Shown here piece by piece: positions 43,458-57,935 of a stretch of 64,000 nucleotides of DNA. A model generated the notes under the pieces. It was not told the DNA's origin and searched no databases. It saw only the letters and a list, made by a program, of their open reading frames with translations. Source of the stretch: Treponemataceae bacterium (GTDB taxonomy: Bacteria; Spirochaetota; Spirochaetia; Treponematales; Rectinemataceae); the NCBI GenBank assembly GCA_963677895.2, contig CAXXGJ010000025.1, positions 96,001 to 160,000 on the forward strand, given 5' to 3'. The stretch's first letter is position 1. Every line of letters starts with the position of its first letter. The position numbers were made by a program, and so were the translations under genes.

Positions 43458-44570
43458 ATGGACAAAGCACAACACACAGAATCAGGCAGGCTGCTCACCG
43501 ACCTCGCCGATGCAGCACTCCAGGCCTGCAGACCCGACACGGTGCGCTGGAACTACGAGAACGGCCTCATCCTTCAGGCAGTCAGGGAAGCCTCTAAACG
43601 GCAGCTGGGGAGCACCTATGACGCTGCATTGCGAAAAATCGCCGAAGCCCTCGTCACCCCCGAAGGATTCATCGTCGGCTATAGAACCGACGAATTCAAC
43701 CTGGACCAGATAAACGCTGGCAAATTCGTCTTCTCGATGTGGAAGGACAGCGGCGATAAACGCTATAAAATTGCCCTGGAGCAGCTCATGGAGCAGCTGG
43801 CATCGCATCCCCGCACGCCTTCGGGCTCTTTCTGGCATAAAAAGATCTACCCTAACCAAATCTGGCTGGATGGGCTCTACATGTTCGGCCCCTTCGCCGC
43901 CCGCTGCGCGGCTGAATTTTCCAATCCAGCCCTTTTTGATGATGTCTGCCTCCAGCTTTTCCATGTGAGGGAAAGTATGAAGGACAGGGCTACGGGGCTC
44001 TACTTACACGCCATGGATGAATCGCGTCGCATGGGTTGGTCCAATCCGGGAACGGGGCTTTCGCCCCATATCTGGGGCAGAGCGGTGGGCTGGCTTTCGA
44101 TGGCTCTCATCGACATCCTGGACTGGCTGCCCGAAAGCCATCGAGACAGGCTGGCTGTCGTCGCGATGTTCAAGGATCTCATGAAGTCGGTTGTTGCGGT
44201 CCAGGACGGCTCGGGGCTCTGGTACCAGATCCTCGACATGGCCAGTGAACCTGGCAACTATCTCGAGGAATCGGCTTCGGCCATGTTCGCCTACTCGCTT
44301 TTCAGGGGCATGCGCATGGGAATGCTAAGCCCGGAGACTTTTGCAGTGCCTGCCGAGAGGGCGCTGGCGGGGATCAAAGATCGTTTTGTCTCCCGCGATG
44401 CCACAGGCAGAGTTCATGTGGGCGGCATCTGCAAGGTGGCCGGCCTGGGAGGCAATCCTTATCGCGACGGTTCCTACGCCTATTACATGAGCGAACCTGT
44501 AGTCTCGGATGACTACAAGGGCACTGGTCCCTTGATCCTCGCGCTCTGCGAGGCTTGCGAGAAACTCTGA
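43458..44570 (+). CDS. GH105/GH88 unsaturated (rhamno)galacturonyl hydrolase (YteR-like)
   Basis: WNYENG, NLDQIN.G, FWHKKIYP.QIWLDGLYM, WGRA.GW, GLWYQ, NYLE.SAS, VAGLGG. Confidence 0.92.
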   Translation: MDKAQHTESGRLLTDLADAALQACRPDTVRWNYENGLILQAVREASKRQLGSTYDAALRKIAEALVTPEGFIVGYRTDEFNLDQINAGKFVFSMWKDSGDKRYKIALEQLMEQLASHPRTPSGSFWHKKIYPNQIWLDGLYMFGPFAARCAAEFSNPALFDDVCLQLFHVRESMKDRATGLYLHAMDESRRMGWSNPGTGLSPHIWGRAVGWLSMALIDILDWLPESHRDRLAVVAMFKDLMKSVVAVQDGSGLWYQILDMASEPGNYLEESASAMFAYSLFRGMRMGMLSPETFAVPAERALAGIKDRFVSRDATGRVHVGGICKVAGLGGNPYRDGSYAYYMSEPVVSDDYKGTGPLILALCEACEKL

Positions 44571-44629
44571 GCATCGGCATAATAACGCCGTCAAGCATGC
44601 CTTGGTATTAGTCCTGAGGAGTGCGCGCC

Positions 44630-46702
44630 ATGGAATTAAAAAACGTGAAACCAGGATTCCCCGCCTGCCTTGCTATCGTCTTTCTGCTCTCAACAATCGG
44701 GATCTTCCACGCGACAGCACAGACAGGGCAGCCTGGCGACAGCCAGCAGCTCTCCCTGAGCGCTCTTGGCTATGATACTTCCATCGGCCTTGTCCGCGAA
44801 GCCATCGCCCGCGACCTCGCCGTAGGCGTCGCCAGCAGCTCGGTAGCCATAACGGATGGCGGCAGGATCGTCTATTCCGAAGGCTTCGGCATGGCTGACC
44901 GGGAAAGAGACATCGCGGCGGATCGCAATACACTCTTCAACATCGGATCGATCAGCAAAGTCTTCACCGGCGCCGCCCTCATGCTCCTCGTCGACGACGG
45001 ACTTCTCGAACTCGACGATAAAGTGGTCGAGCATTTGCCTGAATTCGCGATGGAAGATCCTCGGCACCGAGACATCACGCTGCGCATGCTCCTCAACCAC
45101 AGCTCGGGGCTGCCAGGCTCCACGCTCTCCAACAGTTTCGGGGCGGAGCGCAATCCGGGGTTCCATGAGCAGCTGCTCTCCACCCTTCGCCGCTCCAAGC
45201 TCCGTTCCGACCCGGGAAAGTTCGCTTCCTACTGCAATGACGGTTTCAGCCTCGCGGAACTCGTTATCGAGCGCGTGAGCGGAAAGCCCTACGAAGAATT
45301 CCTGCGAACGAGGCTGTTCGCACCATTGGGGCTTGAAAAAACCGGCCTGAGCGTCGGGCTTCGTCCCGGGGAAACCAGCGCTGCCTTCTACAGGTCCCAA
45401 GACGGGGCTAAGGATGCTCTGGAGGTGGTGTCTGCCACAGGCGCTGGAGGCATTGCGTCCACTGCCGAGGATCTTTGCCGTTTCGCCGATTCTTTCTCGC
45501 TGGGAGGGACGAGGATTCTTTCCCAGGCATCCCTGCGCGAAATGATGAAGCCGCAGCCTTCCCTCGCGGCTATCGCGGCCGACAGGAATCCGGAGATGCC
45601 CTTCGGGCTGGGCTGGGATGTCGCCCTCCCCTCATTTTACGCCGACAAGGGTATCCAGGTATTCTGGAAGGGGGGAGATACCTACCACTACCACGCCTTG
45701 ATCCTGACAAGCCCCGAACGTCGGCTGAGCCTGACGATCCTCCAGTCCGGCGAGGGCACCGGCCTCATACGCCTCGCGAAGGAGCTATTCGAAAGCCTGC
45801 TTGCCGAAAAAGGCGTCATGGTCGCCCGCCCCCCTATCGCCTCCGTCCCGATTACATACCTGCCTGTGCCCGAGGAGTTTAGGGATTTTGAAGGCTACTA
45901 CGGGCCATCGCTCTTTAGGCTCGCCCTCTCGCCTTCAGGCGATTCCTTCATCCAATACATCTCGATAGGCAGCCAGGAGCTCCCGGTCTTAACCATGCGT
46001 TATACGGGCGGCCATTTCGAGGACGGGCAGGGCGGAAGATACTTCCTTACCCGCATGGGCAGAAAACAGTACTTGGCAGGCTCCATGTTCGATGACTGCA
46101 TAAGGATGGTGATGGGTCAGAGACTGCCGGAAAAGGCTGGGGAACAGACACTGCGTATGAACATCGACGGGAAGGTATGGCTGAAGAGGAGCGTAAAGCC
46201 CTTTGTTACCTCAGGCGACAGCGCCACCCATATCCTCGTTTCGAGTCTCGCCAGTTCCCTTCCCGGCTATGTCGACTTCGCGGGCATCAAGGAAATCACC
46301 GCGCCCGACCGCGCCGGCATGACCATCGAGGCCATCTCGGAACAACAGGAATTGCTGCTGGCAGAAGAGGAGGATCGAGTCTGGGTCTGGCTAGCTGAAG
46401 CCCTCTACTGCCCTGTCGACTCGGCTACAGCCCTCGCTACGGGAGCGAACACTACACGCATAGGGCAAAAGGGTCTCAACGAATGGCGCACGGCCAGCGC
46501 GGAGCGGCTGCTCCGTATCAGCCTTCCTTCATCGGGTAGGCTCATCGTGTTCTCCGCCGATCGCTCGGTCATCCACGACAGCGCCTTCGATACCCACCAT
46601 ACAGGCAGCCTCATTCACGTGGTGGAACTGCGCGTACCGGCCGGCAGCTTTGTGGAACTGGCAGGAAATCCTCAAGACCTATTCAGCATCGTTGTGGAAT
46701 AA
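44630..46702 (+). CDS. Secreted serine hydrolase (class C beta-lactamase/PBP-like) with C-terminal extension
   Basis: Signal peptide; FNIGSISK (SxxK), LLNHSSGL, YCN (YxN), KGG. Confidence 0.88.
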   Translation: MELKNVKPGFPACLAIVFLLSTIGIFHATAQTGQPGDSQQLSLSALGYDTSIGLVREAIARDLAVGVASSSVAITDGGRIVYSEGFGMADRERDIAADRNTLFNIGSISKVFTGAALMLLVDDGLLELDDKVVEHLPEFAMEDPRHRDITLRMLLNHSSGLPGSTLSNSFGAERNPGFHEQLLSTLRRSKLRSDPGKFASYCNDGFSLAELVIERVSGKPYEEFLRTRLFAPLGLEKTGLSVGLRPGETSAAFYRSQDGAKDALEVVSATGAGGIASTAEDLCRFADSFSLGGTRILSQASLREMMKPQPSLAAIAADRNPEMPFGLGWDVALPSFYADKGIQVFWKGGDTYHYHALILTSPERRLSLTILQSGEGTGLIRLAKELFESLLAEKGVMVARPPIASVPITYLPVPEEFRDFEGYYGPSLFRLALSPSGDSFIQYISIGSQELPVLTMRYTGGHFEDGQGGRYFLTRMGRKQYLAGSMFDDCIRMVMGQRLPEKAGEQTLRMNIDGKVWLKRSVKPFVTSGDSATHILVSSLASSLPGYVDFAGIKEITAPDRAGMTIEAISEQQELLLAEEEDRVWVWLAEALYCPVDSATALATGANTTRIGQKGLNEWRTASAERLLRISLPSSGRLIVFSADRSVIHDSAFDTHHTGSLIHVVELRVPAGSFVELAGNPQDLFSIVVE

Positions 46703-46838
46703 GGTGGCCGGCCTGGGCGGGAACCCTTACCGCGATGATTCTTTCGCCTATTACATGAGCGAACCCATCGTGTCCGACGACTTCAAGGGTGCCGGCCCCT
46801 TCATGCTGGCGCTCTGCGAGGCGCTTGCGAATAATTGA
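46701..46838 (+). pseudogene. Orphan second copy of the last 45 codons plus stop of the GH105 gene
   Basis: KVAGLGGNPYRDDSFAYYMSEPIVSDDFKGAGPFMLALCEA vs 44433-44570 KVAGLGGNPYRDGSYAYYMSEPVVSDDYKGTGPLILALCEA; ungapped, same length. Confidence 0.93.
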
Positions 46839-46839
46839 T

Positions 46840-46984
46840 AGGATTTACAGTTTTTGACAGGATAACAGGATGGGCAGGATTTACAGATAAGAATTTAGGT
46901 AAAGAAAAGAAAGAGCGAAACGATGCTTTTTTCTTTTTTTACCCAAATATTTTCCCGTAAATCCTGTCCTAACGTAAATCCTGT
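46840..46984. repeat. Long imperfect inverted repeat with iterated CAGGAT/ATCCTG ends (REP/MITE-like; probable bidirectional terminator)
   Basis: AGGATTTAC 46840, CAGGAT 46858 and 46866, CAGGATTTAC 46875; GTAAATCCTG 46957 and 46974; A-rich and T-rich inner arms; lies between convergent genes. Confidence 0.75.
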
Positions 46985-48247
46985 CTAGCTCTTCTCCGCG
47001 AAGCCTGTCAGCGCGTGGGCGACCAGGTTCGTCAGCGATTCCACCTTCATGCCCATCGCGTAGTAGTCATTCAGCTCGGTGAGCTGGGTGTGGCAGTTCT
47101 CGCAGGCGGTGCAGATGATATCGGCGCGGGCTGCCTTGATCTGATCGACCTTCACCTTGGCCGATTTCATGCGGAATTCCTGCTCGCCCATCGAGATGAG
47201 CCCGCCGCCTCCGCCGCAGCACCAGTTTTCCTCGCGGTTCGGCGTGAGTTCTACGAAATCGCCGGTGAGGGCGCCGATAATGCGCCTGGGCTCCTCGATG
47301 ACGCCGCCGTTCCTCGCCAGCTGGCAGGGATCGTGATAGGTGAGACGGCCCTGAAGCGTGCCCGGTTTCAGGGAAATCCTGCCCTCGGCGATATAGCGGT
47401 CGATAAGCTCCACGATCGAAGTCACTTTGAAATCGTGCTTCCCCGATTGGAACTTCATGACGCGGGTGGCCGTGCCGCATTCCACGACGACGACTTCCTT
47501 CACGTTGAGGCGGATGGCCTCGTCGACGATGCGCTGGGAAATCTTCGCCTGTTTTTTGGCGTCGCCCAGCCAGGCGGCGAAATTGACCGCCTCGAAATAG
47601 CTCAAGGTCCAGTTTTCCTTCGCGGCGTTCATGATGGCCGCGGCCGGAATGATGGAGTGCGCGCCCGAGAGCCCGACATAGAGAACATCGGCGTCCTGGA
47701 CATCGACGGGGATCGTCTTCCTGCCTTCGGGCGTCGGAGCCAGGGCTTCCACCTGGGATTCGAGATTTTTGATGGCTTCCCTATAGTTTTCGCCCGACTC
47801 GACAAAGGTCTCGCCCTTGGCGATCGACATGTCGGAGAGCATCGCGAGAAGCTGAGGCTGCCGTTCCACGCCGATGAGGAGAAGCTTGGCTATGCCCATG
47901 ACCTGCTGGGTGTCGATGCCGAAGGGGCAGAAGCCGATGCAGCGGCGGCAGCCCGTGCAGGAAAAGGCGGCTTCGTAAGCCTTGTCCATGCCGATATCGC
48001 CGAAGGAAATCGTCTCGCCGAGCCAGGGCGCGAACTTGCCTTGAAGCTTGAAATAGCGCTTGAAAAGCTTGCGGATCACCTCGGCTCTGCCGACGGGCGT
48101 ATATTTGGTCTCGGGCATCGACGCGTAGACGTGGCAGGCTTCGACGCAGAGCCCGCAGCGAGCGCAGGTGTCTAGGTAAAGACGCATGGCCTTGTTGAGC
48201 TTCGTCTCGAAAAGGCGCTTCAGATGGCCGGTCGTTATATCATCCAT
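46985..48247 (-). CDS. DsrK/TmcB/HdrD-like Fe-S oxidoreductase (two [4Fe-4S] motifs + CCG domain)
   Basis: CARCGLCVEAC and CTGCRRCIGFCP; degenerate first CCG domain (EAVNF...ECGT); YHDPC, WCCGGGGG, TACENC. Confidence 0.88.
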   Translation of the reverse strand: MDDITTGHLKRLFETKLNKAMRLYLDTCARCGLCVEACHVYASMPETKYTPVGRAEVIRKLFKRYFKLQGKFAPWLGETISFGDIGMDKAYEAAFSCTGCRRCIGFCPFGIDTQQVMGIAKLLLIGVERQPQLLAMLSDMSIAKGETFVESGENYREAIKNLESQVEALAPTPEGRKTIPVDVQDADVLYVGLSGAHSIIPAAAIMNAAKENWTLSYFEAVNFAAWLGDAKKQAKISQRIVDEAIRLNVKEVVVVECGTATRVMKFQSGKHDFKVTSIVELIDRYIAEGRISLKPGTLQGRLTYHDPCQLARNGGVIEEPRRIIGALTGDFVELTPNREENWCCGGGGGLISMGEQEFRMKSAKVKVDQIKAARADIICTACENCHTQLTELNDYYAMGMKVESLTNLVAHALTGFAEKS

Positions 48248-48250
48248 GGC

Positions 48251-48988
48251 TTACCTCCTTCTCAGCATATTCAGCGGCAGGCTGAAGAATATGTGCACGA
48301 TCTTGCTGAAAGGCAGGATCATCATGAAAAGTTCAGCCAGGAAGACATGAAGCACGATGAAATGATAATGCGAACCATGCAGTACGAGTCTGGGGTTCAT
48401 GAAAGTGAAGCTCGAGAGGATGCCGAAGTAGCCGCGGAAATTGGCCTTCGTCATGACAAAGCCTTTGGCGGTCCAGGAATTTCCCCAGCTGATCATATCG
48501 CCCAGAAGGAAGGTGAAGAGAAGGAGAAGGAGGAGCAGATAGTCGGCGGGCACCGAGATATGCCTGTTCTCGCCCTTGAATCGCCTGAAAAGAAAATAGA
48601 AGGCGGGAACCGTGACCGAAACGCCGACGAATCCCGCGCCCACCATGTGGCGTGAAGCCGCCGGCACGATGTTGATGCCGGGGAAGAGGTCCAGATGGCC
48701 CAGGATCAGGAAGGCGATGCCCAGATGGAACCACATGAGGAAAAACCAGAAGACCGGTTTGCGCTTTCTGATCATCGGCATGCCGAAGGCGTCGCCCAAA
48801 GCCGCCAGGGCCGGGCGCTTCCTCGCGGGGAAGGTTTTCAGGCTGTAGGCGGGTGCGGGAGAGGAAATGATGGAGGCGATCTTCACGGCGATGCCGACGA
48901 CCATGACGGTGATGGAGATATAGACGAGAGGCACCATGATGAAGTAGTAGAGGCCATCCAGGAAAAGGGCGAAGCCAGTAGGGGCCAC
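48251..48988 (-). CDS. NarI/DsrM-like di-heme cytochrome b membrane subunit
   Basis: Five TM helices; heme-ligand His pairs in WFHLG...LGHL and LHVF...PFSKIVH; GTG start. Confidence 0.85.
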   Translation of the reverse strand: MAPTGFALFLDGLYYFIMVPLVYISITVMVVGIAVKIASIISSPAPAYSLKTFPARKRPALAALGDAFGMPMIRKRKPVFWFFLMWFHLGIAFLILGHLDLFPGINIVPAASRHMVGAGFVGVSVTVPAFYFLFRRFKGENRHISVPADYLLLLLLLFTFLLGDMISWGNSWTAKGFVMTKANFRGYFGILSSFTFMNPRLVLHGSHYHFIVLHVFLAELFMMILPFSKIVHIFFSLPLNMLRRR

Positions 48989-48997
48989 GGCGAGGCC

Positions 48998-49237
48998 TTA
49001 CTTTTGTCGCTTCACGTAGAAGCGGATAAGGCCGGAATCTTGTTTCGTTTCGAGAACGGCATTGCCTGTCGATTTAGCCCAGGAAGGGACATCGGCGAGG
49101 GAACCCGGATCGGTGGAGAGCATCTCGACGACCTCTCCCACCTTCATCTTCGCGACTTCCATGCTGAGCTTGACGATGGGCATCGGGCAGGCGAGCCCTT
49201 TGCAGTCGAGCGTTTTCGTGACGGCGTAATCAGACAT
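48998..49237 (-). CDS. tusA: TusA/SirA family sulfurtransferase
   Basis: LDCKGLACPMP, STDPGS..DV.SWA...GN. Confidence 0.92.
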   Translation of the reverse strand: MSDYAVTKTLDCKGLACPMPIVKLSMEVAKMKVGEVVEMLSTDPGSLADVPSWAKSTGNAVLETKQDSGLIRFYVKRQK

Positions 49238-49264
49238 ATATTTCTCCTTAAGCGAAAAACTTGA

Positions 49265-49801
49265 TCAAATGAATAACTGGACGGCTGATTCCTTGGCGTC
49301 CGCGAGGAAGGAAGCCACCCCGACGACTTTCATGCCGGGATAATCGATCATCTCTTCCATCTTCATCCCCATGAGATCCATCGACATCTGGCAGATATTG
49401 ATTTCGACGCCCAAGGCTCCGGCCGCTTCGAAAAGCTGATCCAGGCTGGCGACGTTTTTTTTAGTCATGAGGCTTTTGAGCATCGCGGTGCCGGCGCCCG
49501 CCATGTTCATCTGCGAAAGCTTCAGCTTGTTGCGTCCTTTCGGGAGCATGAAACCGAACATCTTGCCCATGAAATCCTTGCCGCCTGCCTTCTTGGAAGG
49601 ATCGCGCAGGGCGGCGGTTCCCCAGAAGGTATAGAAAAGCACGACCTTCATGCCCATGGCGGCGGCGCCGGTGGCGATGATGAGGGATGCTATCTGCTTG
49701 TCGAGTTCGCCCGAAAAAACGACCATGGAGAGCTTGTTCTCCATGCCGGGGGCGGAGTTCACCTTAGCCTTGAGCTCACTGAGCTCTTTTTCGATGTCCA
49801 T
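49265..49801 (-). CDS. DsrE/DsrF/DrsH-like (DrsE_2) sulfur carrier
   Basis: VFSGELDK, IIATGAAAMG..V.LFYTFWG, LSQMNM.G.G, ICQMSMDLMG. Confidence 0.9.
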   Translation of the reverse strand: MDIEKELSELKAKVNSAPGMENKLSMVVFSGELDKQIASLIIATGAAAMGMKVVLFYTFWGTAALRDPSKKAGGKDFMGKMFGFMLPKGRNKLKLSQMNMAGAGTAMLKSLMTKKNVASLDQLFEAAGALGVEINICQMSMDLMGMKMEEMIDYPGMKVVGVASFLADAKESAVQLFI

Positions 49802-49824
49802 AGAGTGTTTTCCTTGAGAGAACG

Positions 49825-50127
49825 CTAGTTGTCGCCAGCGCGGCAGCTTTCGAGACAGTGGAGGAGTTCGACGAGATGAGGTTGGGCGAGGCGATAGACG
49901 GCGAAGCCGTTTTCCCTGCGGAATTCGACGAGATCGGCCATGCGGAGAATGCGCAACTGTTGGGAGACGAGCGACTGCGGGACGGCGAGCCGCTCCGTTA
50001 GGTCGCTTACGTGCGCTTCGCCGCCGCAGAGCTGGGCGACTATCATGAGACGTATCGGGTGAGAAAGAGCCTTGAGTATTTCGGCAATATCGGCCGCGCG
50101 CGCCGAATCGTTCTTCAGGTCGCTCAT
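49825..50127 (-). CDS. ArsR/SmtB family repressor (BigR/SqrR-like persulfide-sensor candidate)
   Basis: LKALSHP.RL.IV..LC.GE..V, QSLVSQQL.ILR; Cys in helix 2 and near the C-terminus. Confidence 0.9.
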   Translation of the reverse strand: MSDLKNDSARAADIAEILKALSHPIRLMIVAQLCGGEAHVSDLTERLAVPQSLVSQQLRILRMADLVEFRRENGFAVYRLAQPHLVELLHCLESCRAGDN

Positions 50128-50147
50128 CGGAATATCCGCTTCCTCAG

Positions 50148-50214
50148 GATATAGTGTTATCTTTATATCGCTATATCTTTATAAAACTATATTCCGTCGG
50201 CGCGCGCATGTCAA
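50148..50214 (-). promoter_or_regulatory. Promoter and putative ArsR operator of the sulfur module
   Basis: Minus strand TTGACA (50214-50209), 17 bp spacer, TATAGT (50191-50186); inverted repeat GATATAG/CTATATC (50148-50177) and direct repeat TATCTTTATA (50158, 50174) just downstream. Confidence 0.75.
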
Positions 50215-50219
50215 TAAGT

Positions 50220-51875
50220 TCAGGCGCCGGCCATCATCGCTTCCACGTCGGCGTCGGCGCCGCCTATACCCTTGATGCCGAATTTCTCGACGAGGACAGT
50301 CGCGACGGCGGGCGACAGGAAACCGGGGAGCGTCGGTCCGAGCCTGATGTTCCTGAATCCGAGGTACAGCAGGGCGAGCAGTACCAGCACGGCCTTCTGC
50401 TCATACCAGGCGATGTCGAAGGACAGGGGCAGCTTGTTCACGTCGTCCAGGCCGAAGATTTCCTTGAGCTTGAGAGCGATGAGGGCGAGCGAATAGGAGT
50501 CGTTGCACTGGCCGGCGTCGAGGACGCGGGGAATGCCGCCGATGTCGCCCAGATTCAGTTTGTTGTAGCGGTACTTCGCGCAGCCCGCGGTGAGGATGAC
50601 GGCGTCCTTGGGCAGCTTTTCCGCGACGTCGGTATAGTAGGAACGGCCGGGCTGGCGGCCGTCGCAGCCGGCCATCACGACGAAGCGTTTGATGGCGCCG
50701 GTTTTCACCGCGTTCACCACGGTGTCGGCCAGGGCGAAGACCTGGTCGTGGGCGAAGCCGCCGACAATCTCGCCGTTTTCGATTTCGGTTGGAGGCGGGC
50801 ATGTCTTGGCCAGGGCGACGATGGCGGAAAAATCCTTCATTTTACCGGGAGCGCGGTCCTCGATATGGACGCAGCCCTCGAAACCGACGACGCCGGTGGT
50901 GAAGACGCGCGCCTTGTAGCTTTCCCTGGGGGGAACGAGGCAATTCGACGTGAAGAGAACGGGGCCATGGAAGTTCTCGATGTCGCCGTTCTGGCTCCAC
51001 CAGGAGCCGCCGTAGTTTCCGTAGAGATTGTCGTACTTATCAAAGAAGGGATAGTAGTGGGCGGGCAGCATCTCGCCGTGCGTATAGACGTCGACACCCG
51101 TGCCCTTGGTCTGCTCGAGAAGGTCCTGGAGGTCGACGAGGTCGTGGCCCGAGATGAGGATGCCCGGCCTGTCGCGGACGCCGGTCTTCACGTTAGTGAC
51201 GCGGGGATTTCCGTAGGCTCCCGAATTGGCGCCGTCGAGCAGCGCCATGGCCTTTACGCCGTATTCGCCCGTCTCGAGGACGAGGGCGGTGAGCTGGTCG
51301 AGGCTCTTCGTGGCGTCGGTGAGGTCGGCGAGGGCGCGCAACATGAATTTGAACACCTCGGGCGACTTTTTGCCGATAGCCCAAGCGTGCTCGACGTAGG
51401 CGGCCATCCCTTTGAGCCCGTAAAGAACGAGGGATTGGAGGGCACGGACATTTTCGTCGGCGATTTCCTTCCAGCCGCCCTTGCCCTGGGAGGCCGCGGC
51501 GCGCAGGGCTTCGGGGCTGGCCGCCGTCCAGGTGGCCGCGTCGGGAAGGGATCCGCTCGTCTTGACGCCGGCCTTGGCGCAGGCGGCCCTGAGATTTTCG
51601 CGATATCCAAGACCTTCGAAGATCCAGCGCTCGAAATCCCGGTTCGAAAAATTGGCGTTGGTGATGGTGGCGAAAAGCATCCTGTCCACGAAGAATGCCG
51701 CGGCTTCGTCGTAGATTCCCTTTTCGGCCGCTTTCGTGGCCCAGAATCCAATACCTTTGCACACATGGATCATGAGATCCTGCAGATCCGACACTTCGGC
51801 GGTCTTGCCGCATACGCCCTTGGCCGCGGCGCAGCCCGAGTTTTTCATTGTTTCCTGACACTGATGGCAGAACAT
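50220..51875 (-). CDS. hcp: Hybrid cluster protein (hydroxylamine/NO reductase)
   Basis: [10 protein letters not shown]....[55 protein letters not shown]. Confidence 0.96.
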
Positions 51876-51934
51876 TTCCACCTCCCGCATCTATGCGTGT
51901 AATCGGCGCCCCAGGGGCGGCCGTTGGGTTTCCC

Positions 51935-52366
51935 CTATTCCAATGCTCGATCGACGCGGGAAAAACTGCGGGCGATATCGTCTATCGTCGTGTTTTCGAG
52001 CGTCGCTCTCACTTTTTCTTCCACATCGTCGCAAAGCGACTTGAACGCGCATGTTTTCGTCGCGCATATGGCGCGCTCGAAGAGGCAGTAGTTGGAGGGC
52101 AAGGGCCCGTCGAGCGCCTCGAGCACTTCCATGCAGGGCATTTCGGAGGCGGGCTTGAGCAGGGAAAAGCCGCCGCCGATGCCGCGCACCGAGGCGATGA
52201 TGCCCTTGGCGGCGAGGCTCTGCAGAATCTTGGCCAGGTAGCTGGGAGAGACGCCGAGACGCTCGGCGGCGGCCTTCGCGGCGATCGAGCCGCCGTCGCG
52301 GGATGCCAGCGCGAGAGCGTGGAGCGCGGCGTTCGTTCTATCCGAGATCGCCAGTACTCTGTCCAT
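51935..52366 (-). CDS. Rrf2 family transcriptional regulator (Fe-S Cys retained)
   Basis: SPSYLAKILQ.L...GII.SVRG..GGF.L; CLF....C....C. Confidence 0.92.
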   Translation of the reverse strand: MDRVLAISDRTNAALHALALASRDGGSIAAKAAAERLGVSPSYLAKILQSLAAKGIIASVRGIGGGFSLLKPASEMPCMEVLEALDGPLPSNYCLFERAICATKTCAFKSLCDDVEEKVRATLENTTIDDIARSFSRVDRALE

Positions 52367-52501: not shown

Positions 52502-55500
52502 TCAGACCCGGGTGAGGTTTTCGATCGTCAGGCTTATGGCGCCCCTGTTGTTCTCGACGAGGCCGGCGATCCAGAGCGGGTGTTCTTCGAAGAGCAGGTG
52601 GCGGTATTTGCGGTAGGCCTCGGGAAAGAGAACCGCCTCGAAGATGGCCGTCTCGTCTTCGAAGGAGACGAACTCCATGGTTTCCTCGCTGGAGGTGAGG
52701 ACGGGCTTGGCCGTTATGGGCCAGCCGAGGAGGCGGACGCGGCGGCCCACGTTGCGCCGCAGGTCGATGGCGCGCTCGCGGGGGGCGGCAAAGGCGCGCG
52801 GCCAGAGCTCCAGGGGATGGGAATCAAGGGTGGTGCCGAGGTATTTGAGCTCGGCGACGCGCTTCTTGCGCGTGGAGCCTGGAGGGGGTTCGGGAGCGCG
52901 CGGCGCCGGGGTGTGCGGCTCGCGGGCGCGGGACGCCTGAGCGCGGGGCTCCAGGCGGCGGGGCTCAGGGACGAGGCTTTCGCCATCGGGCGCGAAAAGT
53001 TCGAGCGGCCTGCCGGCGGCTAGGGAAGCGCCTGAGGTTCCAGGGAGGCAGGAAGCCCCGGGGCCGCCCGAGGTGGCGGGGCCTCCCGCCACGCCCTCGC
53101 GCGCCGCGCAGAGGGAAAGGAGAACCATGAGGGCGTCGGAGCGTTTCGCGCCTCCAAGGAGGCTGTCGAAGGCACCCGAGCCCACCAGGGCTTCGGCGTC
53201 GGTCCGCTCGAAGCGCTGGCGGCGCGCGAAGTCCTCGACGGAAAGGTAAGGCCCTCCCCGCTTCCGTTCGCGGAGCATGTCGGCGGCGACGCCCGCGCCG
53301 AGCGAGGAGAGCATGCAGAAGCCGAAGCGGATCTTGCCTCTTCGACCCCTGCATCGCTGGTCGCTCAGGTTGATGTCGGGAGGAAGGAGGGCGAGCCCCA
53401 TCCGCCTCGATTCGCTCGCGTAGGCAAGCGTGGAGTAGAATCCCCCGTGGTTGGAGAGGACGGCCGCCATGAACTCGGCGGGATAGTGGGCGCGCAGGTA
53501 GGCGGACTGGAAGGAGAGCATGGCATAGCTGGCGGAATGGGCCTTCACGAAGGAATAGCCTGAGAACGAACAGATCATGGCCCAGACCGCCTCGGTGCTG
53601 ACCTCGTCGGCGCCCTGCGCCGCGGCGCCTTCGAAAAAAGCGCTCCTGTATTCCTGGAGCCTGGTGTCGGCGTCCTTCTTCGAAAGGATCTTGCGGATGC
53701 CGTCGGCTTCGGAAGAGGAGAAGCCGGCGAGGGCTATGGCCGCCTTCGACACGTCCTCCTGGTAGCAGAGGATGCCGTAGCTTTCGTCGAAAAGCCCTTT
53801 GAGAAGGGGATGAAAGGCCTTCCAGGACTTGCCCCGCAGGCGATCGACATATTCGTCTATATATTTGTTCGCCGCGGGACGGATGATGGACGAATGGATG
53901 ACAAGGTGCTCGAAATCCCCCCTCCCCGTCTTGATCTGCAAAAGGCGCATGGCGGGGCTCTCCACGTAGAAGACGCCCATCGTGTCCCCCCGCGCGAGAA
54001 GGGCGACCGTGTCGGCGTCGTCGATCGGCTTCCATTTTCCCGTATCGAAGGACGGATCGTTTTCGCGCAGGTCGGCAAGCGCGTCCCTGACGACGGCGAG
54101 CGAGCGGTTTCCGAGAAGGTCTATTTTCACGAGGCCAGCCTCCTCCGCCCCCTCCTTGTCCCAGGCGATCACCCTTATGCCATTGCCCGTCTCCTCGACC
54201 GGAACGTGGTCGACCAGATTGTCCGGCACGATGATGACGCCGCCCGAATGCGTGCCCAGATGCCGCGGCAGGCCGACGATGCCCGCCGCCCGCCGCGCGA
54301 TGATCTTCCATTCGGGATCGGCCGAAGAGAGGGTCCCGTCGGTATCCACCTTGAGGGAGCGCTCGAAGTCCGAAATCTCGGCGTCGGGCATGCCGAAGGC
54401 CCTGGCGGTTTCGCGCAGGCCCGAGCGCGAGCGGAAGCAATTGTGGTTGGCCACCCTGGCCGTATGCTCGGGCCCGTAGGCTTTCACCACTTCGTCCAGG
54501 AGGGCGTCGCGCTCGTCCCAGGCGAAATCCACGTCGATGTCGGGCGGGTCTTTCCGCCCCGGGTTCAGGAAACGCTCAAAGTAGAGGGAATGGCGGATGG
54601 GATCGACCTCGGTGATGCCGAGGCAGTAGGCGACGATGCTCGCGGCCGCGCTGCCGCGGCCGCATATGCGCGATGCCTTCTTTATTATGTCCCAGACCAC
54701 GAGAAAATAGTCGCAGAATCCCTTGGACTCGATGAGCGCAAGTTCGCGCTCGATTCTCGCTTTCACCTCGGCGGTCACGGGCGAGTAGCGCCACGCCGCG
54801 CCTTCGTAGACGTAACGGCGAAGAAGTTCGGAGGATGAGGCCTCGGGGCTTGCCCTATGCGTCGCTTCCGAAACGGCGGCAGGGCTTTCCATATGGGTCT
54901 TTTCCGGAACGGCGGCGGCCGCCATTCCGAAACGGGGGAAGACAAAGCCCGAAAATGGCTCTCCCAGGGCTTCGCGCGCGATGAGGGCGTTGAAGGCGAA
55001 GGCTTCCTCCATCCACGCGGCCTGGGAAGGGAGAACGGCCCAGGGGCCGGCGGCCGGGACGACATCTGGGCCGGCACCTGGAGCGGCGGCTGAAGCGGCG
55101 GCCGGGACGGCATTCCAGAGCGCCTCGGGCGGGTCCAGCAAGTCGTCGCCGATATCGTGGATCGTGAGGTTCGCGCCGATGGCAAGAAGCAACCGCTGAA
55201 CTTCGCGCTGCTCCGGCTCGAGAAAGCTCGCCTCTGGCGTCGCGACGGGCCTGTGGCCTGAGGCGGCGAGGCGGCGCCACTTGGTTCTGTTGCAGGGCGT
55301 GACGAGGGCGAAGAGGTAATAGCGGGGTGAAAAGCGCGCGAGGAGGTTCTCGTCGTCCGTGAGGATGAAGAGGTCGCAGGAGCTTGCTTCCAGGATGCCA
55401 GCCACGGCTCCCCGGAGATCGTAGGGGGGAAGGCGACCCTTTCCGCGACGCTTCGCCGGCCTATCGGCCTTTTCGGCCGCCTCCGCGGTCGCGGAGGCGG

Positions 55501-55783
55501 CAGCCCTCGCGGTCAGGAGCCGCGAAATCGCCGAAAATCCCGCCTTCGTCGCGGCGATGAGGACGGCGCGGCCTCCTTCATACACAAGCTCCGTTCCGAC
55601 GATCGGTTTCAAGCCCGCCTTTCGGCAGGCCTCCGTGAAGGTGGGGAGGCCATAGACGCCGTTCCGGTCCGTCAGCCCGAGGCGCGGCAGGCCTGCTGCC
55701 TTCGCCGCCGCCACCCACGCCGCGGGCTGGACGACGCCGCGCATCATCGAGTAGGAGGAGCGGACGACGAGGGGCACGAGCAT
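52502..55783 (-). CDS. dnaE2: Error-prone DNA polymerase III alpha (DnaE2-type)
   Basis: Degenerate PHP domain, GRGSAA.S, FERFLN, PPDIDVDF, KIDLLG, YQED, F.KAHS.SYA, C-terminal OB fold; co-transcribed with imuB-like gene. Confidence 0.9.
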   Translation of the reverse strand: MLVPLVVRSSYSMMRGVVQPAAWVAAAKAAGLPRLGLTDRNGVYGLPTFTEACRKAGLKPIVGTELVYEGGRAVLIAATKAGFSAISRLLTARAAASATAEAAEKADRPAKRRGKGRLPPYDLRGAVAGILEASSCDLFILTDDENLLARFSPRYYLFALVTPCNRTKWRRLAASGHRPVATPEASFLEPEQREVQRLLLAIGANLTIHDIGDDLLDPPEALWNAVPAAASAAAPGAGPDVVPAAGPWAVLPSQAAWMEEAFAFNALIAREALGEPFSGFVFPRFGMAAAAVPEKTHMESPAAVSEATHRASPEASSSELLRRYVYEGAAWRYSPVTAEVKARIERELALIESKGFCDYFLVVWDIIKKASRICGRGSAAASIVAYCLGITEVDPIRHSLYFERFLNPGRKDPPDIDVDFAWDERDALLDEVVKAYGPEHTARVANHNCFRSRSGLRETARAFGMPDAEISDFERSLKVDTDGTLSSADPEWKIIARRAAGIVGLPRHLGTHSGGVIIVPDNLVDHVPVEETGNGIRVIAWDKEGAEEAGLVKIDLLGNRSLAVVRDALADLRENDPSFDTGKWKPIDDADTVALLARGDTMGVFYVESPAMRLLQIKTGRGDFEHLVIHSSIIRPAANKYIDEYVDRLRGKSWKAFHPLLKGLFDESYGILCYQEDVSKAAIALAGFSSSEADGIRKILSKKDADTRLQEYRSAFFEGAAAQGADEVSTEAVWAMICSFSGYSFVKAHSASYAMLSFQSAYLRAHYPAEFMAAVLSNHGGFYSTLAYASESRRMGLALLPPDINLSDQRCRGRRGKIRFGFCMLSSLGAGVAADMLRERKRGGPYLSVEDFARRQRFERTDAEALVGSGAFDSLLGGAKRSDALMVLLSLCAAREGVAGGPATSGGPGASCLPGTSGASLAAGRPLELFAPDGESLVPEPRRLEPRAQASRAREPHTPAPRAPEPPPGSTRKKRVAELKYLGTTLDSHPLELWPRAFAAPRERAIDLRRNVGRRVRLLGWPITAKPVLTSSEETMEFVSFEDETAIFEAVLFPEAYRKYRHLLFEEHPLWIAGLVENNRGAISLTIENLTRV

Positions 55784-55785
55784 GG

Positions 55786-56979
55786 TCAGGCCCTCCCTTC
55801 CGACAGGCGGGGGACGAGGATGCCGGCCGTCATGAACGCGCAGGGAGTCAGGGCGACAAATCCATATTTTCGGTGAACCTTGTCCAGGGCCGTCTGCAGC
55901 CGCGCTGACTTCGATTCCGAGGGCTCGAAGAGGTCGAGTTCGGGCCCCGCCGCGCCGAATTCGGAAAGCTCGACGCCGAGGCGGCGCACCCGCACGCGGC
56001 GCTCCATGGCTCGCTGGGCTATGTCCCAGGCCATGGCGGCGATCTCGTCGTCCCTCGTGAGGATGCGCGGCGACCGGGCCGAAGCTGAGGCGAAGCGCCC
56101 GTCGCTGTAGTCGATCCTGAGCGTCACCTTCCGCGCGCCGAGGTTTTCCTTGCGCGCGGCGAAGCCGAGGGTCGCCGCGAGATAGGCGAGATGAAGGCGG
56201 AGCGCCTCCTGCTCGGCGGTGTCGGGCTCGAGAACCGCGGAATCCCTGAGGCAGCGCCTTTCGGGGGGCTCGGGATTGACCGGCGAATCGTCGATGCCTC
56301 TCGCCCTCGCCACGAGGTCGGGTCCGCGGGGGCCGATGGCCCTCGCCTGAAAGGCTCCAAGGTCGGCTATCCCGCCGATATCGTCGATATCGAGGAGACT
56401 GAGCCTGTCCTTGAGCACCGGGCCCACGCCGGGCAGAAGCTCCACGGGCTGAAGCCTGACAAGGCTGGATTCCTCGTGCGGAAGGAGGGCGACGAAGCCG
56501 CCCGGCCTGAATACCCTGGTGGCCACCTTCGACACCGTCTTGTTCGAGGCGAGAGCGAGGCTCGGCTGAATGCCGGTCTCCTCCATTATTCTAATCCGGA
56601 TCTTTTGGGTCGCGTCCTCAGGCACGCCGTTTATGCGAGAGGTTCCCGCCAGATCGATGAAGAGATGTCCCTGCCCGGCCTTCTCGACGAGGGGAGAAAA
56701 GGACATGCCGATCTCCCACATGGCGTCGTCAGCTTTTCGGTACAGGTCAGGGTGAGGAGGCCTCACCGCGAGGCCGGGAAGACGGTGCCGCGCCAGCGAC
56801 AGCATCATGCCCCGCCTGATGCCTTCCCTGTGCGCTTCCGGCGAAAGATCGAGGACGATGGCGCGGGCAGCTCCCTCCCTCGCGACCACGAAGGGACGTG
56901 ACCTGAGGCTGCGGTCCAGCCCCTCCTCGATGGCGGCCATGAGACCCACGGCGTTGACGTGGAGGACCGTGCCGCCCAT
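55786..56979 (-). CDS. imuB: Y-family polymerase homologue, catalytically degenerate (ImuB-like)
   Basis: LHVNAVGLMAAIE replaces HxDxDxFYASVE; GQGHLFID replaces SIDEAFLD; LPGVG; clamp-like ELDLF; LDKV..KYG tail. Confidence 0.85.
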   Translation of the reverse strand: MGGTVLHVNAVGLMAAIEEGLDRSLRSRPFVVAREGAARAIVLDLSPEAHREGIRRGMMLSLARHRLPGLAVRPPHPDLYRKADDAMWEIGMSFSPLVEKAGQGHLFIDLAGTSRINGVPEDATQKIRIRIMEETGIQPSLALASNKTVSKVATRVFRPGGFVALLPHEESSLVRLQPVELLPGVGPVLKDRLSLLDIDDIGGIADLGAFQARAIGPRGPDLVARARGIDDSPVNPEPPERRCLRDSAVLEPDTAEQEALRLHLAYLAATLGFAARKENLGARKVTLRIDYSDGRFASASARSPRILTRDDEIAAMAWDIAQRAMERRVRVRRLGVELSEFGAAGPELDLFEPSESKSARLQTALDKVHRKYGFVALTPCAFMTAGILVPRLSEGRA

Positions 56980-57935
56980 CAGCCGCCTCCTTTCGAATCA
57001 ACGGCGTTCGATACGCTGTCCCCGGAAAGCCCGGCCCATAGTTCGGCCATGAGCGCCGCGCTCGCCGCCGCTCCATTTCCCCCGCCCGCCGTTACGTTTC
57101 CGTCGCCCGCCGCCACGCCGTATTCGCCCGCCGCGTTTCCGCCGCCCGGCGCGAAAATCACCCTGAGCTTGGCCGCCTGGGCCGCGAGCGCCTCGAGCCG
57201 GGGCAGCCAAGAGGACAAATCGGTCCTGTCGTTGAGTTTCAGGTACACGAGGGAAGAGGTCACGACATCGATGGAAGGAGGCGATCCCGGCTTCCTTGGC
57301 ATGTCGAGAAGGCAAAGAGCCACGCCGCGCGCCTTCAGGCCCTCGATGACCCGCGCCGAATACCAGTCGGCGCCGTAGAAAGCCACGGCGAGGGGCAAGC
57401 CCGAAAGATCCTTCGTCACGCGGTCGAGATGCCGGCGCGCGGCGGCGCCGTAGGAGCAGGAAGCGGGAAATTCGATGAGGAGAGCGGCTATGGCTGCCTT
57501 GGCCCAGGGCGTCGCCATGAGACGGCGGCAATCGGCGACGGCTTTCGCATAGGCGGCTTCCCTGTCCGCCGCCGTTGCCGCGCCTTCCGCCGTCGGCCTT
57601 CCCTTCGCCAATCCGCCCTCCCCCAGCATTCCCTCGGCCGGCCCGATGAAGTCTTCGCCCAGGCGGAGACAAAGATCGGAGAAGCCTCGCGCCAAGGTCG
57701 GCGCGGACGCCAAGGCCGAAGCAGGCACCAAAGCCGAGGCGGGCGCCAAGGCACCTTTCGGAGCGGACTGCGGGGCTGGACCGGCAGGCGCCAGTGTCCA
57801 CGCCCAGGCCCCGAAAGGCAGCTCCACCGTCGTGAGACCCGGGACAGGCGACGCGCCTAACTCGCGGGGTCCATTCCCCGCGGGCGCGATGCCAAAGTGG
57901 ACATCGGGCGATATCATCCACCTGTCTCCGATCAT
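56979..57935 (-). CDS. Degenerate DUF72 (YecE-like TIM-barrel) protein
   Basis: TVEL, LLIEFPAS, PLAVAF...W, LCLLDMP, TS.LVYLKL, L.SW..RL, RVIF follow DUF72 block order; stop overlaps the imuB start. Confidence 0.7.
   Translation of the reverse strand: MIGDRWMISPDVHFGIAPAGNGPRELGASPVPGLTTVELPFGAWAWTLAPAGPAPQSAPKGALAPASALVPASALASAPTLARGFSDLCLRLGEDFIGPAEGMLGEGGLAKGRPTAEGAATAADREAAYAKAVADCRRLMATPWAKAAIAALLIEFPASCSYGAAARRHLDRVTKDLSGLPLAVAFYGADWYSARVIEGLKARGVALCLLDMPRKPGSPPSIDVVTSSLVYLKLNDRTDLSSWLPRLEALAAQAAKLRVIFAPGGGNAAGEYGVAAGDGNVTAGGGNGAAASAALMAELWAGLSGDSVSNAVDSKGGG

Follow-up and report, generated by a model that had tools for sequence, protein, structure and literature searches.

A conserved dsrE2-tusA-M-K cassette outside the Dsr pathway: a possible membrane quinol:protein-sulfur oxidoreductase with TusA in the place of DsrC

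We analysed a stretch of 64,000 nucleotides (the window) from the genome of a Treponemataceae bacterium (GTDB family Rectinemataceae; assembly GCA_963677895.2, contig CAXXGJ010000025.1, positions 96,001 to 160,000 of the forward strand), which carries a five-gene operon encoding an ArsR-type repressor, a DsrE2-like protein, the sulfur carrier TusA, a NarI/DsrM-type membrane subunit (M) and an iron-sulfur (Fe-S) subunit (K). Four of these genes (dsrE2-tusA-M-K) are the conserved unit and arsR is its variable part. The K-M pair is not DsrMK by profile, by tree or by partner genes, yet it is built like DsrMK and probably works like it, on TusA. The reading that we prefer, and to which we give slightly less than an even chance, is that M-K is a stand-alone membrane quinol:protein-sulfur oxidoreductase that uses TusA instead of DsrC and reduces sulfane sulfur to sulfide. 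That TusA is the substrate of K appears rather probable, and, granting that, we lean modestly towards a reaction that is reductive and acts on a persulfide.

The cofactor sites of K were found as originally predicted, with two ferredoxin motifs and one intact CCG domain (Pfam Fer4 twice and CCG once). The ligands of two [4Fe-4S] clusters are accompanied by one intact CCG site (C308, C343, C344, C382 and C385), and the degenerate first CCG domain keeps only Cys257, at the position of the DsrK relay cysteine. The 13 cysteines of the cluster sites, and Cys257 besides, are conserved in 104-105 of 105 sequences, rows shorter than 80% of the length or broken having been dropped from this and the other conservation counts. 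The motif proposed for the degenerate domain was recovered as far as its ECG cysteine is concerned, but it reads ECGT here and not ECGH as in DsrK, TmcB and HmcF: the DsrK-type histidine is replaced by threonine in K of the window and in 120 of its 120 closest homologues, and it is kept in a sister lineage of Bacillota. E219 is also present in K and is invariant in the clade of TusA-linked K proteins, where the last cluster ligand is a cysteine in 27 of 27 sequences.

DsrK is the best family match of K, with a score of 237.6 bits against the curated DsrK profile NF045796 (cut-off 400); the scores for TmcB and HmcF reach 209 of 735 and 182 of 750, respectively, and K is 23-35% identical to seven DsrK proteins that pass the cut-off. 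Trees were made with FastTree (107 rows) and with quick IQ-TREE runs (62 and 45 rows), with midpoint rooting only and with long-branch warnings. The TusA-linked K proteins form one clade apart from DsrK (support of 100 in the Shimodaira-Hasegawa-like approximate likelihood ratio test, SH-aLRT, 62 rows), which weakly adjoins the TmcB/HmcF group (support 81 and 90 in the trees of 107 and 62 rows). A position nested with the basal, dsrC-adjacent DsrK proteins was rejected in the approximately unbiased test (p-AU 1.8e-5), and a position as sister to all DsrK was not (p-AU 0.28). The identification of K as a true DsrK, for which the original prediction had proposed a tree against DsrK, TmcB and HmcF, was abandoned because of the score below the cut-off and the separate clade. 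A predicted model of K (predicted local distance difference test, pLDDT, 92.7) matched EtfD (9OJN) and HdrB chains structurally, and no DsrK-like chain was found among the PDB entries searched.

In M, the histidines H88, H98, H214 and H232 are each kept in 93-94 of 94 sequences. A phmmer search of M against the PDB returned potassium-channel noise only, and a later profile search retrieved NarI (E 2e-12), with all four histidines aligned to the haem histidines of NarI, in agreement with the four haem ligands claimed before. The score against the TmcC profile was 35 of 240. Helix 3 of M is continuous and bears glycine, as in NarI. The stand-alone DsrM-1 is described with the same helix 3 pattern and an open quinol site (bioRxiv 10.64898/2026.08.25.746951), and by that description M would be of the open quinol-site, DsrM-1-like type.

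The original prediction had noted that the window holds no dsrAB or dsrC, and this could be extended to whole genomes. The DsrC family was found in none of 61 genomes (the host and 60 relatives, 20 of the 61 carrying K) and in none of 13 further carrier genomes. Neither DsrC nor dsrA turned up in the host or in the 32 other carriers searched, the host genome being 92.8% complete and the other searched genomes likewise incomplete. For dsrA the count above the cut-off was 0 of 27 carriers, with a control genome (G159) passing, and the NIR_SIR family had no match in the host or in five other carriers. The only other CCG protein in the host is an unrelated subunit of 424 aa.

A K orthologue at a minimum of 62% identity is present in 20 of the 61 genomes. 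Of 19 regions taken from relatives, three end inside the cassette; among the remaining 16 the order dsrE-tusA-M-K is kept in 15, and the last locus is without dsrE. Similarly, in a metagenome scan (the best 80 of 580 loci, thus biased to close relatives and not a count of species), the 50 loci with an upstream flank of at least 1.9 kb have M in 50, tusA in 49, dsrE in 48 and all three in 48; a few metagenome loci show the variant order dsrE-M-tusA-K. Two Bacillota records also carry the four genes, and five of 401 sampled Bacillota genomes encode a sister K at 43-47% identity, in all five cases with tusA-M-K and with dsrE upstream (in one of them by a weak match only). Among 11 further regions with K homologues at 32-39% identity, dsrC follows directly after a GECGH-type K in five and tusA is in the operon in none. 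The five-gene synteny of the original prediction thus stood for dsrE2-tusA-M-K and not for arsR. Neighbour clustering, which was swamped by alternative-frame open reading frames, gave MarR, extra DsrE-like genes (6-8 loci) and lineage-specific genes as the only recurring neighbours. The best match in a search of plasmids had 29% identity and was not an orthologue. Five short contigs of a relative at about 94% identity, covering dsrE, tusA-M and K, came from a sequencing run presumed to be RNA; as the run may be DNA and had been located by means of this very stretch, they were not counted.

Several unusual arrangements of K-family genes were encountered on the way. One K-family protein (P0131) is fused to a C-terminal DsrC-like domain without the terminal cysteines, and two proteins (P0124 and P0134) are M-K fusions, the first of which lies at the base of the TusA-linked clade. 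Two dsrAB clusters (L169 and L170, of genomes G159 and G117) contain two different K-family genes each. One product is of the TECGH type and falls on the Tmc/Hmc side of the tree; the other, encoded next to dsrC, is a GECGH DsrK.

No TusA other than that of the cassette (PF01206, 85 bits, with a score under the equivalog cut-offs of E. coli TusA and YedF) was found in the host genome, and in the cassette TusA C17 and P18 of the CPxP motif are present in 83 of 83 sequences. We co-folded this one pair, TusA without an alignment and K with a 12-row alignment, and obtained an interaction score from aligned errors (ipSAE) of 0.74, compared with 0.00 for the best of three controls. Solved complexes attain this level in 116 of 157 cases and mismatched pairs in 2 of 215. 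At least 97% of the contacts are shared between the runs, and partner pLDDT is at least 87. The predicted interface includes residues 16-18 of TusA, among them Cys17, and residues 133-162, 193-199, 217-223 and 352 of K. As a prediction, the model supports binding of TusA to K. Interface residues of TusA are more conserved than the remainder of the protein (0.83 vs 0.66), and L137, D139, K144, L193 and G195 of K are clade-specific residues at the predicted interface.

The location of this interface can be compared with the site of DsrC. In the cryo-electron microscopy structure of DsrMKJOP with DsrC (bioRxiv 10.64898/2026.08.25.746951), Cys329 of Archaeoglobus fulgidus DsrK is a persulfidated relay, His210 and Glu292 contact the DsrC sulfur (Glu292 as a putative hydrogen-bond partner), Phe258 contacts DsrC and acts as a wedge that exposes the trisulfide, His331 is a possible proton donor, and Asp500 is an altered ligand suggested to suit oxygenated sulfur. 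We mapped the DsrK positions by spacing back from the relay cysteine in 12 DsrK homologues, which placed Glu292 at residue 219 of K (10 of 12), Phe258 at 192-196 (12 of 12) and His210 at 140-144 (11 of 12). These mapped DsrC contacts fall within the predicted TusA interface or border on it, so that the predicted TusA site would be the DsrC site, and the idea of TusA as a direct sulfur-loaded substrate gained plausibility from the co-fold and the mapping together. In the TusA clade the loop that probably bears the trisulfide-opening phenylalanine is shorter by 5-8 residues and has no aromatic stretch; the shortened wedge loop and the last ligand cysteine would fit a single-cysteine carrier that has no trisulfide to be opened.

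In the DsrE2-like protein, C137 is kept in 76 of 76 sequences. The protein matches PF13686 with 170 bits and the DsrE2 equivalog NF047629 with 65 of 210 bits, and its solved relatives are 3PNX (E 3e-29) and 2QS7, a DsrE2B (E 3e-14).

The scheme that we infer from this, as regards cofactors, form of sulfur, direction, induction and the role of DsrE2, would be as follows. Electrons from NADH would reach menaquinone via an Ndh2-type dehydrogenase, and the quinol would be oxidised by M at a NarI-like site, from where the electrons would pass through the two haems of M and the two [4Fe-4S] clusters to the single non-cubane cluster of K. DsrE2 would gather sulfane sulfur (polysulfide or persulfides) and load Cys17 of TusA, which would then dock where the pocket of K opens and pass the sulfur to Cys257, where two electrons would free sulfide. 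Synthesis of the proteins would be permitted by release of a cysteine-bearing repressor on build-up of reactive sulfur. The outcome would be a detoxification route or an auxiliary electron sink, and only when haem and quinone precursors are scavenged.

The supply of quinol that this scheme shares with the original prediction is likely in the host, in the form of a quinone pool (UbiA-family and mqn genes) and an NADH:quinone reductase. The genome encodes [FeFe] hydrogenases and Rnf, as well as a type II NADH dehydrogenase that has a membrane C-terminus and is encoded next to a polyprenyl synthase (G000:C2:253524-255533; L197, L216; L228). By its Pfam domains this enzyme would be Ndh2-like, and the locus resembles that for flavin-based extracellular electron transfer. 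The Ndh2-like gene is matched in 45 of the 61 genomes, namely in 20 of 20 carriers and in 25 of 41 non-carriers; for a UbiA-family gene these numbers are 20 of 20 and 27 of 41, and it is found in 13 of 13 further carriers as well. The host also has a cluster of mqnL/ubiD-mqnP-ubiX and genes for an NMT1-type ABC transporter (G000:C25:52471-58123, L180; the same layout in L221 and L217), possibly a unit for the salvage of quinone precursors. In three genomes of another family an Ndh2-like gene lies beside an mqnL/ubiD-mqnP-ubiX cluster. Matches to PF02621 (MqnA/D) in relatives were weak (17 of 61 genomes, the host not among them) and look like cross-matches.

Several points weigh against the reading of M-K as a quinol-driven reductase of TusA-bound sulfane sulfur, the most important being of a thermodynamic nature. 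The polysulfide/HS- couple lies at about -260 mV. As menaquinol lies at about -70 mV (PMC10861901), persulfide reduction is uphill under standard conditions, and the cost would be larger if electrons cross the membrane inward, although DsrMKJOP does free sulfide with menadiol. In addition, the position of DsrK His331, proposed for proton transfer, is the one taken by threonine in all of the closest homologues of K. As for the docking, the interface of K is no more conserved than the remainder of K (0.685 vs 0.684), and E. coli TusA binds IscS by the same face as predicted here, mapped by offset (PMC2854127), so that the model may reuse a generic face. A Metallosphaera DsrE2B was unreactive with all sulfur compounds tested and did not bind TusA (PMC4175335). 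With respect to the host, neither menB nor mqnA/D was found in the genome, for which reason the quinone would probably be finished from an imported precursor, and ubiD/mqnL is split near 53200 in this assembly (it is whole in two genomes of the same genus). The co-occurrence of the Ndh2-like and UbiA-family genes with the cassette was seen among kin and is a matter of consistency, not of a statistical test. Ferrochelatase was not found in the host genome, and hemB was found neither there nor in 20 of the 22 ECGT-clade genomes searched (it is present in all five Bacillota sister genomes); as the carriers keep the four haem histidines of M all the same, haem scavenging is implied. Finally, the host encodes a soluble CoA-disulfide-reductase-rhodanese fusion followed by a stand-alone rhodanese (G000:C38:463227-465306), and the fusion, likely a persulfide reductase, could do the same job.

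The regulator bears on the question of which compound is sensed. The best solved relatives of ArsR are BigR (3PQJ, E 3e-15) and SqrR (E 2e-13), and its score against the BigR profile is 74 of 155 bits. It has in common with BigR/SqrR, next to this relatedness, a likely autoregulatory operator and sulfur-carrier genes downstream, but the helix-2 sensing cysteine of BigR/SqrR aligns with Ala31 of ArsR, and Cys34 follows three residues later. Among 30 orthologues C34 is present in 19, C91 in 28 and C95 in 27, and the conserved pair, C91xxxC95, lies in helix 5. Of the cysteines pointed out in the original prediction, in helix 2 and at the C-terminus, the latter were thus upheld as a conserved pair, and Cys34 proved out of place and variable. 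Two-cysteine persulfide sensing of the BigR/SqrR type did not survive, and membership of that group was rejected, because persulfide-sensing ArsR proteins are defined by a helix-2/helix-5 cysteine pair (PMC10054925), which is absent here. Of the 50 metagenome loci, 20 have ArsR in the slot of the regulator, and in 16 loci (within L101, L107, L110, L112 and L117-L133) the slot is taken by a MarR-family protein with a conserved adjacent CC pair. Two loci have a protein that is CsoR/CstR-like by a CstR fingerprint, and some loci are without a regulator. The interchange of ArsR, MarR and CstR-like proteins, three unrelated repressors that all bear cysteines, together with the sulfur-carrier cargo, would favour reactive sulfur as the inducer. 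Several of the loci with MarR contain extra small DsrE-like genes, and some have a FadL-type porin downstream of K.

Because persulfide reduction by menaquinol is uphill, two alternatives keep some weight. In the first, which we consider unlikely, K would work in the opposite direction and oxidise sulfide onto Cys17 of TusA, or TusA-bound sulfur further, with electrons going to menaquinone; the cassette would then be a substitute for sulfide:quinone reductase or a persulfide generator, and the quinol would be reoxidised by exported flavin reductases of the host. Such a reaction is thermodynamically downhill, and several FMN-binding flavocytochrome-c family proteins, present in the host, could drain the quinol. 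There is also precedent, in that sulfur oxidisers use DsrMK oxidatively and TusA/DsrE deliver sulfur to two oxidative pathways, sHdr and rDsr (PMC11094781, PMC8477390). However, no cytochrome bd, no HdrB above the cut-off and no NIR_SIR-family enzyme was found in the host genome to take the product, the host, a fermenter with hydrogenase and Rnf, has reductant to spare, and a persulfide maker would not be expected under persulfide-type de-repression.

The second alternative concerns the adduct, and we regard it as rather unlikely: TusA would carry an oxygenated group (Cys-S-thiosulfonate from tetrathionate or thiosulfate, or a perthiosulfenate) that is reduced with quinol under release of thiosulfate or sulfite, which would make M-K a cytoplasmic tetrathionate/thiosulfonate reductase. 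TusA and DsrE3A of Metallosphaera indeed react with tetrathionate and not with polysulfide or glutathione persulfide (PMC4175335), DsrK reduces perthiosulfenate and E219, which occupies the position of its putative hydrogen-bond partner, is invariant here, and the reaction would be energetically easier than persulfide reduction. On the other hand, TusA and DsrE3 proteins of bacteria can be loaded with polysulfide in vitro (PMC11094781), the aspartate ligand suggested for oxygenated sulfur is the invariably cysteine position of the TusA clade mentioned above, no YeeE/YedE importer gene was found in the host genome, and the loci show no recurring transporter or sulfite-handling neighbour.

It is decidedly unlikely, in our view, that sulfur is not the main business of M-K and that the cassette is a thiol-repair or stress module, in which M-K would use quinol to reduce TusA/DsrE2 cysteines that have become oxidised, nitrosated or metal(loid)-bound, or would supply Hcp (hybrid cluster protein) with reductant or sulfur. 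The idea comes from the flank, as hcp and rrf2 lie directly upstream of arsR with no terminator-like site found between hcp and arsR, and as in two related loci (L038 and L103) arsR is absent and hcp abuts dsrE, the operator motif being still present in L038. It also comes from ArsR, which has the helix-5 CxxxC rather than the persulfide-sensor pair, all-helix-5 sites being known from atypical As(III) sensors (PMC10054925). Nevertheless, hcp occurs close to the cassette in just 3 of the 80 metagenome loci and 2 of the 19 regions of relatives and is not beside it in one genome of the same genus, for which reason hcp/rrf2 was rejected as a conserved part of the operon; moreover, no arsenic or metal efflux genes recur near the cassette, and a CstR-like regulator occupies the same slot in other loci. 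Least of all do we expect an orphan remnant of DsrMK or TmcBC with tusA and dsrE2 carried along as passengers under common regulation and not interacting with it, a very improbable case in spite of the best family match to DsrK and the sister relation that the tree test leaves standing, since no DsrC was found in any carrier searched, all cofactor ligands are intact in about 100 sequences, linkage is kept down to 43% identity, and the clade-specific residues lie at an interface that passes the co-fold.

The preferred reading, a quinol-dependent reductase of TusA-bound persulfide, has its nearest counterpart in DsrMK, the minimal version of DsrMKJOP, a menaquinol:DsrC-trisulfide oxidoreductase (PMC10861901, bioRxiv 10.64898/2026.08.25.746951). 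The cassette shares with DsrMK a NarI-type di-haem subunit with an open-site (DsrM-1-like) helix 3 and an Fe-S subunit in which two cubanes and a single non-cubane CCG site are accompanied by the extra cysteine at the relay position and a conserved glutamate at the Glu292 position, but it differs in the absence of DsrC/DsrAB from the carriers as far as found, the separate clade, the ECGT motif, the shortened wedge loop and the tusA and dsrE2 genes within the operon. The TmcBC/HmcEF complexes of sulfate reducers likewise combine a single-CCG Fe-S subunit with an ECG cysteine and a NarI-type anchor, but the cassette proteins are far under their cut-offs (about 28% identity), and no periplasmic cytochrome partner genes of the Tmc/Hmc type occur in the operon or among the recurring neighbours. 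HdrDE of methanogens has the same two-subunit plan, and the K model matches HdrB chains, but HdrDE has two intact CCG sites and CoM-S-S-CoB as substrate, whereas K has one such site and a proposed protein substrate.

Sulfur relays of the TusA/DsrE type are connected to other enzymes as well. In sHdr-LbpA systems a tusA-dsrE relay (with DsrE2 and DsrE3) is encoded beside an Hdr-family enzyme (PMC11094781, PMC4175335), but that enzyme consists of soluble HdrA/B/C with lipoate-binding proteins and oxidises sulfur, whereas the cassette encodes a two-subunit, quinone-linked membrane complex; of the sHdr core, HdrB was sought in the host genome with the result given above, and LbpA itself was not searched for. 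The YTD cluster (yedE-tusA-dsrE-chp) of sulfur disproportionators likewise holds tusA and a dsrE-family gene in anaerobes (PMC12998232, PMC13490349), but it is without M or K genes, and the cassette is without yedE or chp. In soluble flavoprotein persulfide reductases of the Pcar_0429 type, with rhodanese, TusA and DsrE domains, the persulfide relay is tied to a reductase and is proposed to release sulfide (PMC3543383), but there NAD(P)H and FAD act in one soluble chain, whereas the cassette would use haem, Fe-S clusters and quinone at the membrane.

No published description of the cassette was found in full-text searches of the literature; a passing mention may exist, subscription papers and supplements lying outside the search. 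In the available part of the main text of bioRxiv 10.64898/2026.08.25.746951 TusA and DsrE are not mentioned, and PMC10504309 mentions a few dsrMK genomes without DsrAB, with no link to TusA in the part available. A wider proposal, to which we give a limited but real chance, would be that the cassette represents a widespread, undescribed class of membrane quinol:TusA-persulfide reductases, a sister solution to DsrMK, with which, by means of Ndh2 and scavenged haem and quinone, fermenters without Dsr, Psr or Sre would reduce zero-valent sulfur via a short redox loop that can contribute to the proton motive force. If this is true, sulfur respiration is hidden in genomes that are now scored as purely fermentative, and an enzyme family whose members have one non-cubane cluster has exchanged its carrier protein, which bears on the evolution of DsrMK and on the trisulfide dependence of its mechanism. 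The cassette also bears on the turnover of zero-valent sulfur in anaerobes that have neither Dsr nor molybdo-polysulfide reductases and on the role of many orphan DsrK/HdrD-like proteins, and dsrMK-like matches in metagenomes need not mark a Dsr pathway. It names a candidate substrate (TusA), a docking site and testable residues (C17 of TusA; C257, E219, K144 and T259 of K).

The layout of the operon, with its five minus-strand reading frames, their spacing, the promoter and the operator-like repeat, was found again in every part where the original prediction had placed it (Table 1). The gaps from arsR via dsrE2, tusA and M to K are 23, 27, 9 and 3 bp, respectively. The promoter, which begins 5 bp past the stop codon of hcp, was the top of five consensus sites in a scan of 6 kb, and TTGACA is also found 5' of arsR in several relatives. 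The inverted repeat downstream of it is likely the autoregulatory site of ArsR: its half-site occurs twice in the window (0.08 expected), and a degenerate form of the motif lies 5' of 23 of 27 arsR-bearing loci and of 1 of 37 arsR-less loci (shuffled mean 0.085), the contrast between the two groups of loci being the informative part as the motif was derived from the very sequences scored. The hairpin that follows K is likely a transcript end or a repetitive extragenic palindromic (REP)-like element.

Table 1. Features of the cassette and its flanks (positions within the window)
Feature	Position	Strand	Description
K (Fe-S catalytic subunit)	46985-48247	-	420 aa; Pfam Fer4 x2 and one CCG
M (NarI/DsrM-type membrane di-haem subunit)	48251-48988	-	245 aa; Pfam Nitrate_red_gam
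tusA	48998-49237	-	79 aa; CPMP, C17; Pfam TusA (PF01206)
dsrE2-like	49265-49801	-	178 aa; ICQMS, C137; Pfam DrsE_2 (PF13686)
arsR	49825-50127	-	100 aa; Pfam HTH_5
Inverted-repeat operator (likely)	50148-50177	.	13-nt arms 50148-50160 and 50165-50177, 4-nt spacer; between the -10 box and the arsR start
Sigma70-type promoter TTGACA-17-TATAGT	50186-50214	-	11/12 consensus matches
Hairpin, long and imperfect	46856-46985	.	immediately 3' of K; -54 kcal/mol; partial copies on two other contigs
hcp (hybrid cluster protein)	50220-51890	-	upstream of arsR; context only
Rrf2 regulator gene	51935-52366	-	upstream of hcp; context only

Two further observations concern the surroundings of the operon. Positions 46701-46830 of the window are an 82% identical copy of the final 130 bp of a glycoside-hydrolase-like gene (43458-44570), which suggests that the beta-lactamase-family gene at 44621-46702 was inserted or exchanged there. 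On the other side, positions 52502-57935 hold a minus-strand cassette of genes for a DUF72 protein, a Y-family polymerase (ImuB/DinB-like) and an error-prone DnaE.

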